From a virus, in IMG/VR virus record IMGVR_UViG_3300045257_000045, positions 4,092 through 68,091 of that record: DNA of 64,000 bases; one strand, written 5' to 3'. Below the pieces are notes generated by a model. The model was not told the origin of the DNA and searched no databases. It was given only the letters and a program-made list of their open reading frames with translations. The stretch's first letter is position 1. Each line of letters starts with the position of its first letter. A program made the translations under genes and the position numbers. Of this stretch, positions 26,455-64,000 are shown one piece after another.

Positions 26455-26864
26455 CGGAGTACGTAGCCGGGTTCATGTTCGACACAGGAACCTACACCGT
26501 GGCTTTGATTCAGAAGCAGCGACCGGCATGGCAGAAGGGGCGCTGGAACGCCATCGGCGGGCATATCGAAGCTGGTGAGAGCCCACGCGAGGCTGTGGCT
26601 AGGGAATTTGAAGAGGAGACGGGCGTAAAGAACAGCGATTGGAAACGGTTCGCCGTCTTGGAGGGCGGAGACTTCAAGGTACACTTCTTTGTAGTCTTAG
26701 ACGACGCTGTGTGCCGCGTGAACACTTTGACGGACGAGCAGGTCAACTACTACCCCCTTGACTTACTGCCGTATCCCCTAGTGCCTAATCTAAGGTGGCT
26801 GATTGAGTTGGCGTTAACGAACCTTAGAGGGGCTTCTGAGTTGCACATAAAAGAGGTGGCGTGA
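26451..26864 (+). CDS. NUDIX hydrolase
   Basis: [24 protein letters not shown] Nudix box. Confidence 0.93.
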
Positions 26865-27374
26865 TGCCGCCTTGGACTCCAGACCCTAACTCCTTCGTCC
26901 TCGTGGTATCTAACCGTCTGTATAGCAAGCTGTGGGACGAGATGGCTCAGTACCAAAACAGAACCATAGGCGACTTCGAACTGTGCAAGCACATCGCAGA
27001 GCTTGGTCTGCCGGTGGATGACATGAAGTACCGTATGACAACGATTGAAGTTGACCCGGCGTTGAAGGAGCACGAATGGAAAAGAAGACCCCTGCGAACG
27101 CCGACTGAGGCTGTTAACCGTGGCTGCTGACTCACTTCTGTTTCTACTGAAGGACTTGTCTAGGGTGGACGTGTCGATGAACCCAGGTGTACCCAGCGAC
27201 GCCAAGGTTGTCGCGATGGAGCGCGGCGACTTCCTCCCTAAACACTCGTACAACACAATGTACATCGTTATCAGCAGTCACACCTTCGACCCTGTGCCTG
27301 AGGGCGAACTTATCCCCGACCTAAAACTAATCTACACCACAACGCAAAGGACAAAGAGTGACCGCACCTTTTAA
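26861..27374 (+). other. Two small hypothetical genes (26861-27130; 27120-27374)
   Basis: Coupled ORFs. Confidence 0.65.
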
Positions 27375-32776: not shown

Positions 32777-33492
32777 GCAATATCCTTATCTCCGTAGTCC
32801 ACCCAACAGCACGCGTCAAACCCTCCGCAGGCTTTCCAAGAGGCTGGGTAGACGCTATGCTCAATTTCTACGAGCGGTGCGCGGAGCCGAGCCGCGTTGA
32901 GTACATCCTGGTTGTTCATGAGTCTAGGTGGGACGAGTTCTGGGGCACCGGAACAAACGCTGTAGACATCTCTTGGGGGTCTACCAACGTAATCAAGAAC
33001 CCCTACAGAGACTGCGTCGTTGACCAGCTCAACGTTGGGTGCGCTGCCGCCGACAAGTCCTCCAAGGTTCTGATAGCGACTATGGACGACCTCCGAGCCC
33101 CTAAGGACTGGGACAGGCTGATAGTGGAGTCGTTCCCAGACCTGGACACCCCGCACGTCGTTCAGTATTCGTCATGCTCACCCCGCGACGGGGACTTGAT
33201 CGTGGCTGGGGCTATAACCAGGGCGCGGTACGAGTCTGTAGGCTACTGCTTGCACCCCGATTACACCAGCATGTACGCAGACGACGACTTCACCACAGTG
33301 GCTAGGCGTGACGGAGTGATGCTGGAAGCCAAGAACATCCAGTTCGAACACCTCCACCCAGGCTTCGGCAAGGGGCAGTGGGACGAGATCTACGAAAACC
33401 AGAACAGCGAAGCAAACCTCAAGCACGGCATAGAAACGTTCAAACGACGCATCAAAGAAGGATTTCCACCCTATGACATGGTCAAACGCTAA
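32773..33492 (+). CDS. Glycosyltransferase family 2-like protein
   Basis: ISVVHPT, ATMDDL, HPDYTSMYADDDF, FEHLHP. Confidence 0.75.
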   Translation: MSNILISVVHPTARVKPSAGFPRGWVDAMLNFYERCAEPSRVEYILVVHESRWDEFWGTGTNAVDISWGSTNVIKNPYRDCVVDQLNVGCAAADKSSKVLIATMDDLRAPKDWDRLIVESFPDLDTPHVVQYSSCSPRDGDLIVAGAITRARYESVGYCLHPDYTSMYADDDFTTVARRDGVMLEAKNIQFEHLHPGFGKGQWDEIYENQNSEANLKHGIETFKRRIKEGFPPYDMVKR

Positions 33493-33754
33493 GCACATCA
33501 CTTTAAAATCACTCCAGGACATGCTGGCAGGACTGCCACCGGTTCCCGACGACGTGGTGGTGCGTGCGCACCCCGCTGACGTAGCGAGGGGCTTGCTGGT
33601 CTTCCTACAGCCTAAACCGAATCATGGTCTGCTCACCTCAATGGGCGGTCTGCCGGTGTATGAGGACAAATCTACGCCTGAAGGCACTGCGGTCCTGTGG
33701 AACAAGACGAAGGACACCGTCGAACTCATCGACATCAGCGGGGTGAAGGCATGA
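33473..33754 (+). CDS. Small protein resembling an HK97-fold capsid A-domain fragment
   Basis: ITLKSLQDMLAGL...VRAHP...GLLTSMGGLPVYEDKSTPEGTAVL. Confidence 0.55.
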   Translation: MTWSNAKHITLKSLQDMLAGLPPVPDDVVVRAHPADVARGLLVFLQPKPNHGLLTSMGGLPVYEDKSTPEGTAVLWNKTKDTVELIDISGVKA

Positions 33755-34329
33755 ACCTAGACTTCAACAAGCTGCGGAAGGCGCTCGTGGAGCGACCTAA
33801 CACGGGCCACGACGTTACGGTCTTCGTTCACCCAGACGACCTTAAAGCAATGGCTCTGTTTTACGGGCAGTCGATACCTTTCGGCGCGTGGCCTGCTGTT
33901 TCGCACTTTGTCGGCTACTCCCTCAAGAGGGCTGGTCTGCTTGCGAAGCGCGGCGAGGCCAAGATATTCGACGCCACCGTCCTCACGTTGCAGATCGTGG
34001 ACCTCAAAGCCGATGTGTGCAGCAAACCTGGGTACGGCTGTTGCGACGGCAATATGGTTGAAGGCCACGCAGACACCTGCAAACACGCGGACGGAGTAGC
34101 GCCGCCGCCCAACGAAGCCCGCAAGCAGGAGTTGCAGCACGAGGTCTGGCATCTCAAGAACGTCATCACGGAGCAGGACAAGGCTCTGGCTCACTGGCGG
34201 AAGGAGGCCGACAAGGACGCTGCCAAGATGGCTGAGCTTCGTCTTGAGAACTACCGCCTAGGGACTGAGCTGGTGTGGGCTAAGGAAACAGGCAAGCAAC
34301 TGGTGGAGATACTGAGGGGTAAACTCTGA
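33751..34329 (+). CDS. Capsid-A-domain-like N-terminus + Cys/His motif + coiled coil
   Basis: LDFNKLRKAL...VFVHPDD...HFVGYSL...GEAKIFD; start re-called at ATG 33751. Confidence 0.5.
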   Translation: MNLDFNKLRKALVERPNTGHDVTVFVHPDDLKAMALFYGQSIPFGAWPAVSHFVGYSLKRAGLLAKRGEAKIFDATVLTLQIVDLKADVCSKPGYGCCDGNMVEGHADTCKHADGVAPPPNEARKQELQHEVWHLKNVITEQDKALAHWRKEADKDAAKMAELRLENYRLGTELVWAKETGKQLVEILRGKL

Positions 34330-34598
34330 TGTGGGAATGTTGCGACGAAGCTAGGAGGTTGGGGTGGAATGGCATGGTGAGGATGATTGTGCTAGGGTGG
34401 AAGACACCTAGAGAATCCTCGGTCGTCATCGAGATCTGCCCGTACTGCGACAAGGTTCTCCGAGGTGGAGATTCCGGAGCGGCGTAGTGCCGCCAGGGAT
34501 AAACCCCAGATTACACTTCCATGTCAGAATGTGTACCTTTAGTACTAGCAATAGCCATTTCGGGCTATGCGTAATCTGTTTGGAGTGATACACTTACC

Positions 34599-34823
34599 TT
34601 GTCTATGCACCTTCATAATATAATAGAGGTCTTGGAGAAGGCCATACAACATTTGCGGGACGCCGTCGAGTCTTTGAAGAAGGCCGACGTTCTATTGGCG
34701 GGGGTAGACATAGCCGTCCTGGAAGGAATAGTAGCCCCGCCTACCAAGGGCTCAAAGACCTCTGCGTCATTGAAGAGGTCTTGGGAACGACGCAAGCAGA
34801 GCGAGGAGCCCGAAACCTCATAG
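34599..34823 (+). CDS. Hypothetical protein at the convergence of the two arms
   Basis: 74-aa ORF ending against the last - strand gene. Confidence 0.4.
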   Translation: MSMHLHNIIEVLEKAIQHLRDAVESLKKADVLLAGVDIAVLEGIVAPPTKGSKTSASLKRSWERRKQSEEPETS

Positions 34824-35516
34824 AATCCTCAGAGCAACCCTCCCACCAAGATCCACCCACATCCTCAGCTTCTGCCACAGCGTCTTGGGCTTGACGAACT
34901 CGTCGGCCTCTGCGTGTACGTCCTTGGCAATCCCATCTACACTCTGCCCGATCCCCACAAACGCCTTGGACATCTCCGGTGCGGCTTTGCCGACAGCCTC
35001 GGAGGTCACAGCAATTCCGACAGCCGTCACGTTCGCAGTCTGTACGAATGCGTTCAGATCAGGATAGAGGTCGTCCAGCGAATCCTTGGCATCCCCCACA
35101 AGCGCCGTTGAGGCGTCTCCCAGCTTTGTGTAGCTTGCCAGGACCGGGTCCAGCTTGCTCCCCAGGCCGGTGACGGTGCCGTTCATGGCCGTGAGCTGCT
35201 TGTCGGCTTTGTCCGCAACGTTGGTGACGACGGCCTGGACGGAGGTGAGCTGCTTGTCGGCCTTGACCAGCGCAGAGGACACCTGAGCCATGAGGGCGTC
35301 CCGCAGAGGTAGCTTACCGTACAACGCCTTGCTCTGCGGATCTCCGTTGACGGTCTTCGTGACGGCGTCGAGGACTGGGTCCACACGATCGGTCAGAGCC
35401 TGGGCGACGACTGCACGGCTGCGGTAGCCTAGCCAGGAGATCGTGGTGAGGGTGCCGAAGAAGGCGAAGACGGACAGCAGGGCGAGGACTACGAAGATGT
35501 CTTTAACTGTCCTCAT
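34818..35516 (-). CDS. Membrane-anchored coiled-coil protein (possible spanin-like)
   Basis: N-terminal TM helix, long amphipathic helix with KADKQLT repeat, end of the lysis region. Confidence 0.6.
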   Translation of the reverse strand: MRTVKDIFVVLALLSVFAFFGTLTTISWLGYRSRAVVAQALTDRVDPVLDAVTKTVNGDPQSKALYGKLPLRDALMAQVSSALVKADKQLTSVQAVVTNVADKADKQLTAMNGTVTGLGSKLDPVLASYTKLGDASTALVGDAKDSLDDLYPDLNAFVQTANVTAVGIAVTSEAVGKAAPEMSKAFVGIGQSVDGIAKDVHAEADEFVKPKTLWQKLRMWVDLGGRVALRIL

Positions 35517-35847
35517 ACGTTACACCAGCTCCGTGAGCGGCAGACATGCGCGTGTTGTAAACCGCCTCCGCGCCTACCATCTCATCAACCACGTACGCGT
35601 CAACAGCAAAGCCTCGCATAGAATCCAGGCTCCTGCTCGACTTGAACTCGATCACGCTTCCGTTGCTTAGAAGGAGCTTGTTGTCAGACCGGCGCAGTGT
35701 GACGTTGTCGTCCCAAGGTTGCAGCAGCTTCATGGTGTCATCCATAAGGTTCACGCACTGATTGTGGGTCAAGCCGACCACCCAGTTCCGCGAACCAGCG
35801 TGGGACAACGCGTGTAGTGCTATGAAGTGTAGTTTTCCAGGTGTCAT
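35503..35847 (-). CDS. Mini-protein resembling the terminase large-subunit ATPase core
   Basis: WVVGLTHNQ...LSNGSVIEFKS...DSMRGFAVDAYVVDE; only 114 aa; AAAGGA RBS. Confidence 0.7.
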   Translation of the reverse strand: MTPGKLHFIALHALSHAGSRNWVVGLTHNQCVNLMDDTMKLLQPWDDNVTLRRSDNKLLLSNGSVIEFKSSRSLDSMRGFAVDAYVVDEMVGAEAVYNTRMSAAHGAGVTYEDS

Positions 35848-35869
35848 GTTAGTTTCCTTTTGAAATGAT

Positions 35870-35911
35870 GAAAAGCCCAGGCCGCAGACTTGTTAGGGTC
35901 TACGCCTGGGC
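35870..35911 (-). terminator. Intrinsic terminator
   Basis: On - strand GCCCAGGCGTAGAC...GTCTGCGGCCTGGGC followed by TTTT. Confidence 0.75.
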
Positions 35912-35917
35912 GTTGTC

Positions 35918-36022
35918 TTACTTAGCAGCGACGATGTGAACATCCCAGGGATCGGGAGGAACGGTAGGGCCGTGTGCGACGGCAAGAGCCGCCAGTGTGA
36001 GTGCGAGTAAAATCATCTTCAT
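35918..36022 (-). CDS. 34-aa secreted peptide precursor (MKMILLALTLAALAVA-HGPTVPPDPWDVHIVAAK)
   Basis: AAGGA RBS, Sec-type signal with AVA cleavage motif, terminator immediately after. Confidence 0.7.
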   Translation of the reverse strand: MKMILLALTLAALAVAHGPTVPPDPWDVHIVAAK

Positions 36023-36265: not shown

Positions 36266-36772
36266 TTACTTGCTTGTCCTAAACACAACGCCAATCTGGG
36301 GAACTACATTCCACGAGGAGTTGATCCACAGCAGACGGGGCGCAAACAGGATGGCCACGTTGGGGCGAACTTCGTACGCCAGCGTCGCCGCCAAACTTCC
36401 TGCAAAAGACATGCTCAATCCGCTGGGCACAGCTTGGTTCATCCCGATACCCGCGTCGCCGCCAGCCAGGAACGTCAACTTGCCGCTGGTGAACACGACG
36501 CGGTGAAGACCCTGTCTGATAGAGGCTGTGAACGCGTAGTAGTCCCGCTTTGTCGTTGGGTCTGTGCGAAGGACGGGCGTGATGTCTGCGGTCGTGCTGG
36601 TGTACATCCTTATGGAAGACAGAGCCGGGTAAATAGCCGTGATCCACAGTGTTGTGCGCGGCGTTCCGATCTGGTTGAACGCTACTCCCCCGCCTGCAAA
36701 GGTGGGGAGTGTCGCCGTTTGCGCCGACGCCGTTAGGCACAACGCTAAAATGAGTGCTAGTCGGTGTATCAC
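36266..36772 (-). CDS. Exported outer-membrane beta-barrel-like protein
   Basis: GTG start with GGAG RBS; signal peptide IHRLALILALCLTASA; alternating amphipathic strands ending QIGVVF. Confidence 0.55.
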   Translation of the reverse strand: MIHRLALILALCLTASAQTATLPTFAGGGVAFNQIGTPRTTLWITAIYPALSSIRMYTSTTADITPVLRTDPTTKRDYYAFTASIRQGLHRVVFTSGKLTFLAGGDAGIGMNQAVPSGLSMSFAGSLAATLAYEVRPNVAILFAPRLLWINSSWNVVPQIGVVFRTSK

Positions 36773-36936
36773 AGGGCTCCTTCGCGCAGGTTCTTCTCGT
36801 CCAGCTCGTCCAAAAACTTCTTGGCTTCGGCCATCTCCGCGTCGGCGTCCTGCGCTGCTGTGGGCCAACCCTCCGCTTCGAACTTCTCCAACTCTTCCGC
36901 GATCTTTTCTTCCTTGGTCTTCTCTACATCGCTCAT
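36769..36936 (-). CDS. Small acidic protein (55 aa)
   Basis: MSDVEKTKEEKIAEELEKFEAEGW..., GGGAG RBS, GTGA coupling. Confidence 0.6.
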   Translation of the reverse strand: MSDVEKTKEEKIAEELEKFEAEGWPTAAQDADAEMAEAKKFLDELDEKNLREGAL

Positions 36937-57849: not shown

Positions 57850-58752
57850 TTAGTTGGATTTGATGTTCACGACGTGGATGCTCTTGGCATCTTCCGCCGC
57901 CTGCGCGTTGGTCTTGTCGTCCCAACCGAAGAGGTGCGCGGCGAAGTGGACGTCCGCCGAGATCACATCCTCTTTGCTCAGCGTGTCGCGGTCAAATTCG
58001 ACCTGCACGTTGCGCTGGTAGAACAGGGCCAGAGAACCGGGTCCGACGATGTAGGTCTGGTACTTCAGCACCGAGGACACGGTCGCCTTCTGGACGAGAT
58101 CCGAGATCAGGATGGGCAGACCCATCAAGGTGCCGATCATGCCGGTCTTCATCACGTCGCCGTTGAACTGGTACTGGTTCTGAATCGCGCCGAGACTGAC
58201 GAGGTCACCGTACACTTTGGAGTGCATGATGATTTTGCCGCCAGACAGCATGTCCATGAAGTTGTCACCGATAGTGGTAACCAGCGCCTTGATGATGGCG
58301 TTCTGGGTCACGAAGCCGGTGGTTTCCAGGCCGGTCTGGTCGAACGTGTTCGGCGTCTTCGCCGCTTCGAGCACCAGCGCACCGTCGAGGTAACGCGCAG
58401 CCTTCTGGCTGAGCTGCTTCACGATCTCCTCGCCGGGATCGGCCTTGGAGACCAACGACGCCGTATCGTACACGGCGTACGCACCACCACCGCGCTGCAC
58501 GGTAGCAAACTCGGCGTACGTGGTCACACCGCTCGTGGTGAGCGCGGTGCCTTCGGTCATCGCCACGAAGTCAGCGACCCGCTTGAAGGCGGGCATTTTG
58601 AACTCCGTACCCGGCGAACCCAGGGGCACGGTGGTGTCGATCTCGACCAAGTTGGTGTTGCCAAGAACCATTTTGTCGGGGAACTTAGCGGTGATCTGGT
58701 CCGCCAGAACTTCCGGCGAGATGATGTCTTGAATGCGGGTAACTGCTGCCAT
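57850..58752 (-). CDS. Major capsid protein (HK97 fold, N4-gp56-like family)
   Basis: ISPEVLAD, PGTEFKMPAF, IIMHS, IGTLMGLPILISD, VEFDRD; AAAGGAG RBS; start re-called at 58752. Confidence 0.9.
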   Translation of the reverse strand: MAAVTRIQDIISPEVLADQITAKFPDKMVLGNTNLVEIDTTVPLGSPGTEFKMPAFKRVADFVAMTEGTALTTSGVTTYAEFATVQRGGGAYAVYDTASLVSKADPGEEIVKQLSQKAARYLDGALVLEAAKTPNTFDQTGLETTGFVTQNAIIKALVTTIGDNFMDMLSGGKIIMHSKVYGDLVSLGAIQNQYQFNGDVMKTGMIGTLMGLPILISDLVQKATVSSVLKYQTYIVGPGSLALFYQRNVQVEFDRDTLSKEDVISADVHFAAHLFGWDDKTNAQAAEDAKSIHVVNIKSN

Positions 58753-58864
58753 ATAGATGGCTCCTTTAAGGTGTGAAATGAAAACTGTGCTGCACACACG
58801 CGACTCGTGTGTCTAGTACTTACTCCGTGGCCCGTGTGTGCAGGCCAAGTCTTCCACGAAGTCT

Positions 58865-61656: not shown

Positions 61657-62598
61657 CTATTGAGGTATCTGGTTGGCTTTGAAATACGCCAGGGTTTCGT
61701 TCAAGGTTCTAACGCTGCTGGCGTCCACGAGTCGCGCATACTCTGCGCTACGGTTATGAGCAATTTGAAGAAGGTCGTACATCGGCAGCGCCGCTCCCAA
61801 CCGCAGATGGCACTTGGTTACAAAGCTGTCGAAGAGTTTATACAGCCACTCTTCGCCGCCAGCTACGTGCGCTGATACAAGTAGGTTGATGTAGTAGTCG
61901 TCGTAGTAGTGTCTAGGGTAACCACGCGCACCGGCATAATGGTAATGGGACAAGTTAGGATCTAACCACACTTCCTTGCCCAGACGCCACAGCTTCAGGT
62001 CACACGCTAATTCCTCACCGGCGTAACCTACAAACAAGGATTCGGGGCCGTAGCCGCCGCAGGCTTCCCAGACACTCCTACGCACTACGAATGCTCCATG
62101 ACCACCCGCAGCGATGCGGTAGGGTTTGTGCCTTCCTTCGTACGGCTGTAGAGCTGACTGAGCCCAGAAGTTGAAGGGCAGAGTCAGCTCGTACTGGTAA
62201 TGCGTACCTTGGCCGCTGTGAAACATCGTCGTGGAGTGAAGCAACCCTATGTCTTCGCTCTCGAAGTCAAGAACTGCCCTGTCGAAGTATTGGCGACCTA
62301 CCAAGCAATGATTGTCAAAAAAGAATAGTAATTCTCCGTCAGCCGCCGCAGAACCTCTTTGGCGGGCTACAGGGGGAGACAGAGGTTCGTCAAAATGAAG
62401 ATGCTTGAGAAGTCTACCGGTTGCTTCCAGTTGCTGAAGAGTGTTCCTAGTGTCTACGTCGAACTCCCCACCGTTCGTGACGATCACGTAGTTGTATGTC
62501 TTTTTGCTGCGGAGCAGATCCTCCTCGCAACTGTGAATGGTCGCCCACAGGCCGAGCGCGCTACCTCGATGAGGAATGATGATTGTAAAGTCTGTCAT
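61657..62598 (-). CDS. Glycosyltransferase family 2
   Basis: FTIIIPH, ARQRGSAAADGELLFFFDNH, VRRSVWEACGGY, EELACDLKLWRLG. Confidence 0.88.
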   Translation of the reverse strand: MTDFTIIIPHRGSALGLWATIHSCEEDLLRSKKTYNYVIVTNGGEFDVDTRNTLQQLEATGRLLKHLHFDEPLSPPVARQRGSAAADGELLFFFDNHCLVGRQYFDRAVLDFESEDIGLLHSTTMFHSGQGTHYQYELTLPFNFWAQSALQPYEGRHKPYRIAAGGHGAFVVRRSVWEACGGYGPESLFVGYAGEELACDLKLWRLGKEVWLDPNLSHYHYAGARGYPRHYYDDYYINLLVSAHVAGGEEWLYKLFDSFVTKCHLRLGAALPMYDLLQIAHNRSAEYARLVDASSVRTLNETLAYFKANQIPQ

Positions 62599-62620
62599 AA
62601 AGGTAGCGCGTTACTTTGCC

Positions 62621-64000
62621 TTAGGGAACTAGCACTCTCGGTGTACGAGAAGCCATATCGTATCTAACCACTCCCATTTCCGAGAGCAGCTCAGAGTCGG
62701 ACAGTCCGCGAGAGAATACGGCTATCTGCCCAATGGTCCCGTGGAATGCTTGGGAGCCGCCGGAAAGAGATCCCACTTTCAAGGCGTTTGCCCCTAGTGC
62801 AGTCCCGTCTGTGAACGTTGTTAACGCAGTCAACGGTAAAGTAGAACCTAGACCTGAATTGCCGTACACTGTAACAGCGGACCCTACACGACGAACTACC
62901 AGCGTTACGAACGCACCGTCCGTGGAGAGTGAGAATGCAGAAGATGTGGTGCCGCCTACCTTCACCTTCCAGGAGTTGCCAACGCTTGAATCGCGCAATA
63001 TTTGGAAATCAGTCTTGTCGAGAACCATCTCATTAAATATTACGGGTTGTGTGCCTTCGTGCTTAAACGTCAGGAACACGGTTAAGTCTGTAAGCGCCAC
63101 GTTGTAGGGGGTTGTAATGGTAACTGGTGTGGGGTTAGTCATCGAGTCAGCTTGAGGCCACCCGGTTCTTAATCCATCCCCATCATTGACCACCAACTGC
63201 GTTGCGATACCAGTCACTTGGTAGCCGTTCGGCTTCCCAGCCTTAGGCCCGGCATAGTCGGTAATGGTTGTTGACCAAACCGGCATATCCATTAACCATA
63301 GAGCGTCAAGACCGTTTGCGATGTGCGTTGTCTTTGTTCCAAACCAGGATGTATGAGGCGTCGGGTTTGCTTGCGATCTGGGCACGAATCTAACCCACTT
63401 GTAGAACGGAGCATACTCGTCCGTACCGGAGTTTAGAAAGTTGCCAGTCACAGCCACTTTACAAGTCACACTACCGTCCGCTGGGTACAAGCAACTGCTC
63501 TCCAGAAGCTGCGGCATGGTCGGCCCGAACGTTGGGTTGTTCACCGGGTCTGGAGGAATATAACCGGCCAGCGTAGCGTCTAGCATGGCGGTAGGGTAAG
63601 GCCCAATGTCCCATGCCAGGATTCCGGCGCTGCCGTCGTTGTAACCCTCGCTGCCGGTGATCGGTGCCGGGGTCGGAGCAAAGCCAAGAAATACCCAGCG
63701 ATTGATGCCCCCGCCTATCCAACTGATGGTGCCCCTGCGACCGTACGGGTATTCGTTGAAGTCTTTGTAAGACCCGAACCCGGCGTCGGTAATCGTCGTC
63801 CAGTTGGAGTCCAGGAGCATATCACTACCGTGCCCCGTACCGTTGTATATCTGGTTGATCGTCTGTCCGTTTTGCGTAACCGCGATGTTGTTCACCGGGG
63901 TTCTAATGACAGAGAAGTTCTCGATGCCGTTGGTGTACGCGAAGTGGTATATCCACGCATCCGTACCCACATTGTGAGTTACCGGGAACTGGTACCCTGG
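62621..64000 (-). CDS. Large virion-associated protein with C-terminal LamG/concanavalin-A-like domain (5' end outside the window)
   Basis: LKVGS...FHGTIGQIAVFSRGLSDSEL; frame open to the window edge. Confidence 0.75.
   Translation of the reverse strand, partial: PGYQFPVTHNVGTDAWIYHFAYTNGIENFSVIRTPVNNIAVTQNGQTINQIYNGTGHGSDMLLDSNWTTITDAGFGSYKDFNEYPYGRRGTISWIGGGINRWVFLGFAPTPAPITGSEGYNDGSAGILAWDIGPYPTAMLDATLAGYIPPDPVNNPTFGPTMPQLLESSCLYPADGSVTCKVAVTGNFLNSGTDEYAPFYKWVRFVPRSQANPTPHTSWFGTKTTHIANGLDALWLMDMPVWSTTITDYAGPKAGKPNGYQVTGIATQLVVNDGDGLRTGWPQADSMTNPTPVTITTPYNVALTDLTVFLTFKHEGTQPVIFNEMVLDKTDFQILRDSSVGNSWKVKVGGTTSSAFSLSTDGAFVTLVVRRVGSAVTVYGNSGLGSTLPLTALTTFTDGTALGANALKVGSLSGGSQAFHGTIGQIAVFSRGLSDSELLSEMGVVRYDMASRTPRVLVP

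Follow-up and report, generated by a model that had tools for sequence, protein, structure and literature searches.

The locus

The stretch analyzed here, which we call the window, is the 64,000-nucleotide segment covering bases 4092-68091 of a 68,091-base IMG/VR virus contig (IMGVR_UViG_3300045257_000045; CheckV completeness, 71%). The contig comes from a soil phage that is kin to Tunturi_4, a phage of Tunturiibacter (Acidobacteria). Its genes are organized in two arms, a plus-strand arm running rightward to 34823 and a minus-strand arm running leftward from the right end to 34818, which produce a convergent junction. We focus on the small genes on either side of this junction, above all p114, which is related to the ATPase core of the large terminase (TerL), and the adjoining pair p93 and p192. 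A preliminary description of this DNA, made from the sequence by itself, had placed at the junction of the two arms a candidate decoy system built of stand-alone copies of capsid and terminase domains. The location is correct, and the open reading frames (ORFs) that it named are all present and intact, with phage-typical codon usage. The three genes are as follows.

35503..35847, minus strand: p114, a 114-residue P-loop-less copy of the TerL ATPase core, assigned by PHROG, BLASTP, alignment, and AlphaFold/Foldseek.
33473..33754, plus strand: p93, an orphan small protein, a paralogue of the p192 N-terminus, with a FliH-type motif; the public gene call starts at 33521 and gives 77 residues.
33751..34329, plus strand: p192, with an N-domain (about residues 1-95), a Cys-rich linker, and, at the C-terminus, a long helix (residues 122-191); the start codon and the p93 stop overlap (ATGA).

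p114 as a copy of the TerL ATPase core

We conclude that the p114 gene is intact and that its product is an inert look-alike of the TerL ATPase core, of the size of a domain. In a pairwise BLASTP comparison it matched residues 98-195 of the Tunturi_4 TerL with 34/103 identities (E 5e-9), and searches of related genomes returned TerL matches at E 8.8e-7 and 1.6e-9. It is 39% identical to the TerL of the related contig G001, the portal of which is 63% identical to that of this phage. A tblastn search of 50,697 phage records gave 103 weak matches with the Tunturi_4 TerL at the top, and a spread sample of 60 of the tblastn rows comprised 45 annotated terminases, 6 hypothetical proteins, 2 entries annotated as protease, and 7 unannotated records. 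A match to a “hypothetical protein” of Citrobacter phage IME-CF2 was rejected; that protein belongs to phrog_7497 and has no kinship with p114. The PHROG matches are to the short family phrog_6910 (E 7.9e-6) and to three TerL families (E 0.003-0.02), and the match to Pfam Terminase_6N (PF03237) is below the curated cut-off (13.6 bits against 22; E 0.054).

The predicted structure agrees with the sequence matches. The AlphaFold (AF2) model, built with a 53-sequence alignment, has a pLDDT of 85.5 and a pTM of 0.81, and its top Foldseek match in the PDB is the P74-26 TerL ATPase (4znl; E 1e-5; TMq 0.72), followed by the D6E, HK97, T4 gp17, and Sf6 terminases. The ESM Atlas holds its own model of p114 (pTM 0.76), which gives TM values of 0.80-0.86 to TerL clusters. 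The earlier assignment of 35503-35847 to a terminase ATPase core is thus borne out.

Alignment with the TerLs (alignment A1) shows what has been kept and what has not. The first residue of p114 falls at the Walker A lysine position, and its last strand is the one in front of the C-motif, ~20 residues beyond Walker B. The Walker A P-loop (GxxxxGK[ST]) is missing both from the ORF, which starts MTPGKL, and from the 15 in-frame codons upstream, while the Walker B sequence VVDE is retained at residues 86-89. The C-motif, lid, and nuclease are also missing, since the alignment stops before the STP strand and there is no nuclease remnant on the contig. Residue R78 sits in the motif MRGF, within a column of invariant RGF in the same alignment, and this column aligns with NLRG of P74-26 TerL (4zni) and with NLAG of its R139A mutant (4znj). 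R139 of P74-26 TerL is described in 10.1101/080440 as a trans-acting arginine finger, and R78 of p114 is, on alignment, its equivalent.

As a gene, p114 resembles its neighbors, with codon log-odds of 0.64/0.49 that lie within the range of 17 long phage genes (mean, 0.65/0.67). The features around it are the following.

35854..35858, minus strand: an AAGGA ribosome-binding site, read from the sequence, 7 nucleotides upstream of the p114 ATG.
35875..35911, minus strand: a terminator-like hairpin with a stem of ~14 bp and an 8-nucleotide loop, followed by a U-rich run, between p114 and the next ORF upstream.
35918-36022, minus strand: that ORF, of 34 residues, with an N-terminus resembling a signal peptide and a tail rich in Pro and Trp; the hairpin comes at once after it.
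34818..35516, minus strand: p232, a membrane-anchored helical protein and the last gene of the minus-strand arm; its first 14 nucleotides overlap the end of p114.

The hairpin stretch (88 nucleotides) folds at -29.9 kcal/mol (z -4.0), and 0/200 shuffles folded as well. The match of p232 to Pfam DUF948 (E 0.0005) is below the cut-off. We also observed that TerL tblastn alignments continue beyond the p114 ATG on its 5' side (35848-35892, minus strand), keeping the reading frame and crossing a stop codon, for up to 13-45 codons. The Walker A region may have left a decayed remnant here, in a stretch too short for testing. Elsewhere the 68-kb contig is free of TerL debris.

Mini-TerLs in other phages

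A gene of the same kind was found in a second related contig, G002, whose portal is 48% identical to that of this phage. G002 encodes a full TerL of 440 residues with Walker A and Walker B and, two genes upstream of it and before TerS, a 115-residue ORF (L013:1465-1812) that we call the G002 mini. The G002 mini is 26-28% identical to p114, starts and ends where p114 does, and, when aligned with TerLs, has a 4-residue gap in common with it. When a profile of these two minis was run against 1.84 billion representative proteins, it gave 219 proteins at E values up to 0.001, and the best after the two queries were the short proteins P0006 (129 residues) and P0007 (148 residues), which ranked above every full TerL. 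Among the short profile matches that were read, 7/18 are P-loop-less, have lost the DE of Walker B, finish at the same end strand, and share a T-C-L-T-x-T-x-G-W...D motif; the other 11 resemble cut pieces of ordinary TerLs. Each of the seven minis of this library falls in a cluster of one or two members, and their contigs are mostly short. One of the 11 cut-looking matches, P0125 (119 residues), is without Walker A and has an intact VVDE, like p114; it may be another case of the p114 type, or a fragment cut off by a contig end.

In viral contigs, a pattern scan yielded 21 loci: 20 TerL-type ORFs and a single mini (L018), which lies on contig G006 (160.9 kb). The G006 mini (L018:8019-8441) overlaps the start of TerS, with TerL and then a glycosyltransferase downstream, and this order of mini, TerS, TerL, and glycosyltransferase is common to G002 and G006. 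The TerLs of the two contigs are 70% identical and their minis 35%. The only matches of the G006 mini among cultured phages were four Rhizobium-phage TerLs at E 0.7-0.8, and a metagenome scan with alignment A9 found nothing. A mini-only profile searched against the PDB matched haemagglutinins, spuriously, and reached P74-26 TerL at E 0.14. The family phrog_6910 was matched by p114 alone, that is, by 1/8 minis. We found no description of P-loop-less mini-terminases in the searched literature on terminases and Avs, a search outside which lay the supplements of PMC13601566 (Figs 11-16) and PMC11564622 (Data S9).

The eight minis other than p114 (P0005/G002, the G006 mini, P0006, P0007, P0010, P0034, P0037, and P0047; 101-148 residues) form one clade with support of 100/96 in a tree calculated from 121 columns. 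Like p114, the members of this clade begin immediately behind Walker A, finish at the strand in front of the C-motif, carry an L-R/C-G-F motif, and have the 4-residue gap relative to TerLs. For its part, p114 is a stand-alone ORF of the same size class (~100-150 residues) with the N- and C-terminal boundaries of the mini clade (alignments A1 and A3). Because the fold match is joined by this recurrence of the short length and boundaries, it is reasonable to regard p114 as a retained, domain-sized look-alike.

A working gene or a relic

On its own, p114 could not be expected to bind or hydrolyze ATP, and for this reason it would act by binding, if it acts at all. The partner that we prefer is the packaging machinery, either TerL or TerS, because two related phages have minis with these same boundaries that adjoin TerS-TerL on the upstream side, one of them overlapping the start of TerS. 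p114 might then serve as a noncatalytic subunit mimic that modulates assembly of the motor. A complex prediction for residues 1-250 of the G002 TerL with the G002 mini scored 0.00, which is no evidence either way. Roughly weighed, a role directed at the terminase and no role at all are each possible without being probable, and a role directed at host sensors or some other role each looks doubtful and less likely than those two. We rate a working gene above a relic, although not by much.

A relic would be part of a terminase gene that recombination had left behind at the arm junction, open by inheritance and functionless, and we regard this as a possible, though not the probable, explanation. 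Many of the results that count against a retained, working p114 are those that a relic would account for. In the tree, p114 falls outside the mini clade, among the TerLs and on a long terminal branch; when all nine minis were forced together the cost was 5.4 log-likelihood units, and a single origin was not rejected (approximately unbiased test, p 0.189). The mini clade has lost the Walker B DE and carries the C-terminal T-C-L-T-x-T-x-G-W motif, whereas p114 is without the motif and keeps the DE, as expected of a less remodeled copy. The two clade members with known context lie upstream of TerS-TerL, whereas p114 comes after the lysis genes with no terminase gene adjoining it, and the TerL and TerS of this phage are off the contig. 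p114 is also a singleton: a search of 5.8 billion clusters for an orthologue returned only p114 itself, the seven p114-matching loci in JGI metagenomes included no minis (0/7) and were all ordinary TerLs, and, apart from the G002 mini, there is no orthologue in Tunturi_4 or in five related contigs. The terminator-like hairpin lies directly upstream of p114, which stands at the very end of its arm, and no promoter-like site was found between hairpin and gene. The few TerL-like codons in frame on the 5' side of the ATG could be a decayed P-loop. In a substitution-only simulation of neutral evolution, 175/1000 copies were free of stops at 60% identity to the ancestor and 70/1000 at 40%, and since 7-17.5% of neutral copies thus stay open, the intactness of p114 is by itself weak evidence of selection. 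Finally, TerLs were present in the input alignment of the p114 model, so that fold and sequence do not count as independent matches.

Other features of p114 are harder to reconcile with a stranded fragment. Its boundaries are clean and are also those of the mini clade, which is independent of it; a ribosome-binding site of its own precedes it, its end overlaps the start of the next gene, and its codon usage resembles that of the resident genes. The 68 kb hold no further TerL remnant. The lower identity of p114 to the G001 TerL than of portal to portal indicates a long divergence without a stop or frameshift.

If p114 is a working gene, its target might instead be a host terminase sensor of the Avs1-3 or Upx type, with p114 acting as a nonactivating decoy or another kind of anti-defense protein. 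We consider this unlikely, although several points favor it. As described in PMC13601566, the TerL ATPase domain by itself activates EcAvs2 and Upx, and one tested Upx homologue is from an acidobacterial family. The same account reports a likeness to the TerL ATPase for the small phage proteins T4 vs.8, Ksap1, and Ksap2, and binding of such proteins to the Avs2 pocket; its authors offer an anti-defense role for these look-alikes as one possibility only. The faster divergence of the minis than of TerL between G002 and G006 fits an arms race, but it also fits relaxed constraint. Against the decoy idea, the look-alikes known so far are activators, not blockers, of Avs2. In addition, PMC13601566 describes Avs2 as reading TerL-bound ATP, ATP being part of what both Avs2 and Avs3 sense on TerL along with active-site residues, and p114 is without a P-loop.

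A more speculative and, in our view, improbable extension would cover p114 together with the G002/G006-type clade. The P-loop-less minis would then be dedicated mimics of the TerL subunit interface, keeping the arginine-finger face without binding ATP, and they would cap or poison terminase rings, whether their own or those of rivals, or occupy host TerL sensors of the Avs2/Upx type. If this were true, “self-mimic” fragments would be a general phage strategy.

The p93 and p192 paralogues

At the end of the plus-strand arm, p93 and p192 form an overlapping three-gene string with a further small gene, which appears to be translationally coupled to p192.

34329..34487, plus strand: p52, a small Cys-rich ORF (CC...CPYC); its start overlaps the p192 stop (TGATG).

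Pfam and PHROG scans of p52 gave no family match. The likeness of p93 to the p192 N-terminus is invisible to BLASTP and was detected by Smith-Waterman alignment, with a score of 49 (z 6.1) that 0/300 shuffles reached. A joint profile of the two aligned with E. coli FliH in hhalign with a score of 31.0, for which shuffles had a mean of 11.6, a standard deviation of 2.3, and a maximum of 18.1 (0/150 as good); the match covers FliH residues 144-175 with a probability of 55%. p192 also matches Pfam FliH (PF02108) at E 0.002, and the ESM Atlas structure matches of p93 include FliH clusters. The shared pattern is that of the FliH/SctL C-terminal domain, i.e., a hydrophobic strand, then HPxD, then a helix, to which p192 adds a long coiled coil; in p192 the domains come in the opposite order to those of FliH, with the globular part first, and no partner ATPase is evident. 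It counts against this assignment that the likeness spans 32 columns only and that the Pfam score is under the gathering cut-off (18.5 bits against 24.1). The single-sequence model of p192 is confident only for the C-terminal helix (residues 122-191), with pLDDT <50 over residues 1-118.

Relatives of p93 and p192 were absent from the search of 5.8 billion clusters and from Tunturi_4 and the five related contigs, and the two-sequence profile run over four records gave no match. With tblastn against phages, p93 had one match at E=2 and p192 had none. Judged from their sequences, p93 and p192 are most simply described as lineage-specific tandem paralogues with a putative FliH/SctL-type motif.

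The preliminary description had taken p93 and the p192 N-terminus for stand-alone copies of the HK97-fold A-domain that mimic the major capsid protein, a reading that is now largely refuted and very improbable. In hhalign, the best-scoring local alignment with HK97 gp5 does fall on residues 277-346, the region that had been meant, and the ESM Atlas returned feature matches that include P2 capsid and short clusters labeled SU10_MCP (score 0.91, with only 127 shared features), as well as structure matches that include Phage_capsid clusters at TM 0.56-0.60. However, the HK97 gp5 profile match has a probability of 0.1% (E 0.48; on a rerun, score 15.4, with 19/150 shuffles as good), the match of the joint profile to the phage's own major capsid protein has E 0.62 with 110/150 shuffles as good, and neither gene has a capsid match in Pfam, PHROG, or the PDB. 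The Atlas model behind the structure matches is of low quality (pLDDT 0.58) and matches FliH clusters just as well, and the FliH motif match is far stronger. A weaker fourth component had been proposed outside the junction.

26861..27130, plus strand: p89, the proposed fourth gene.

p89 has no likeness to p93, to p192, or to the major capsid protein (Smith-Waterman z below 0). Hence the structural expectations for these genes were borne out in the case of p114, with its TerL fold match, and failed for p93, p192, and p89, none of which matches HK97.

Only one of the four proposed components (1/4) therefore survives, and p114 and p93/p192 are linked by nothing more than proximity, on opposite strands. 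A coordinated decoy system at this locus is not supported. Our own reading, which we hold with some hesitation, is that these are separate things rather than one system: p114 is a TerL look-alike, p93 and p192 are paralogues with a FliH motif, and the gene at 26861 is unrelated to either. This removes a false lead, in that the locus has no capsid-mimic component and gives no evidence of a coordinated decoy kit.

Setting within the phage genome

The left-reading arm starts with a protein of at least 459 residues that has a lectin-like domain and with a glycosyltransferase, continues with the portal, scaffold, major capsid protein, and adaptor, and then with tail genes, an exonuclease, a lysozyme, and small membrane or secreted proteins, the last genes being p114 and p232. 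Two features of this arm bear on where the terminase genes would lie.

57850-58797, left-reading arm: the major capsid protein gene, ~22 kb from the junction genes.
61657-64000, minus strand: a family-2 glycosyltransferase and the ORF of at least 459 residues with the lectin-like domain (Laminin_G_3, sub-threshold), between the portal and the expected place of TerL.

The order glycosyltransferase, portal, scaffold, capsid, and adaptor is the same as in Tunturi_4, where TerL comes before the glycosyltransferase. Apart from p114, the whole contig has no Terminase_6N match and no relative of TerS or TerL, and we infer that the true terminase genes of the phage lie beyond the contig end. The description of the junction genes as far from the head module accordingly holds for the capsid gene, while for TerL there is no distance to give on this contig. 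A glycosyltransferase between TerL and the portal is also seen in Tunturi_4, G001, G002, and G006.

Between the lysozyme and the small membrane proteins, at 36266-36868 on the minus strand, is a 200-residue protein with a signal-peptide-like start and no family match, which is possibly part of the lysis cassette. A blastn search of the region against phages gave no match, and no loci related to the exonuclease gene of the window were found. A search of sequencing runs returned no RNA run and a single DNA run, which may be that of the source sample.

Comparison with known TerLs and TerL look-alikes

P74-26 TerL (PDB 4zni/4znl) and Tunturi_4 gp1 (PP885687.1) are homologous to residues 9-102 of p114 and have the same predicted core fold. 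The difference is one of extent and setting, since the TerL ATPase domain has ~250 residues and p114 spans only ~110 of them, as a separate gene far from the head genes. Small TerL-ATPase-like phage proteins have been noticed only recently, Ksap2 and T4 vs.8 being the examples, and their role is tied to the way in which bacterial pattern-recognition receptors read the phage core proteome. To these p114 adds a clear sequence-level case from a phage of the acidobacterial soil type. The coherent clade of P-loop-less mini-TerLs situated before TerS-TerL adds natural pairs of mini and TerL, in G002 and G006, with which binding, packaging, and sensor activation can be tested.

T4 vs.8 (NP_049732.1; 219 residues) is, like p114, a stand-alone small gene related to the TerL ATPase. 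Both match the TerL family phrog_2 over overlapping positions, 277-376 for vs.8 and 299-381 for p114, and no sequence relation of vs.8 to p114 or to the minis is detectable. Ksap2 (Bas60_220, KpAvs2-stimulating protein 2) is described as binding and activating KpAvs2, and its likeness to TerL, in the same description, is structural only; by that description p114 is set apart from Ksap2 in having clear sequence homology to TerL.

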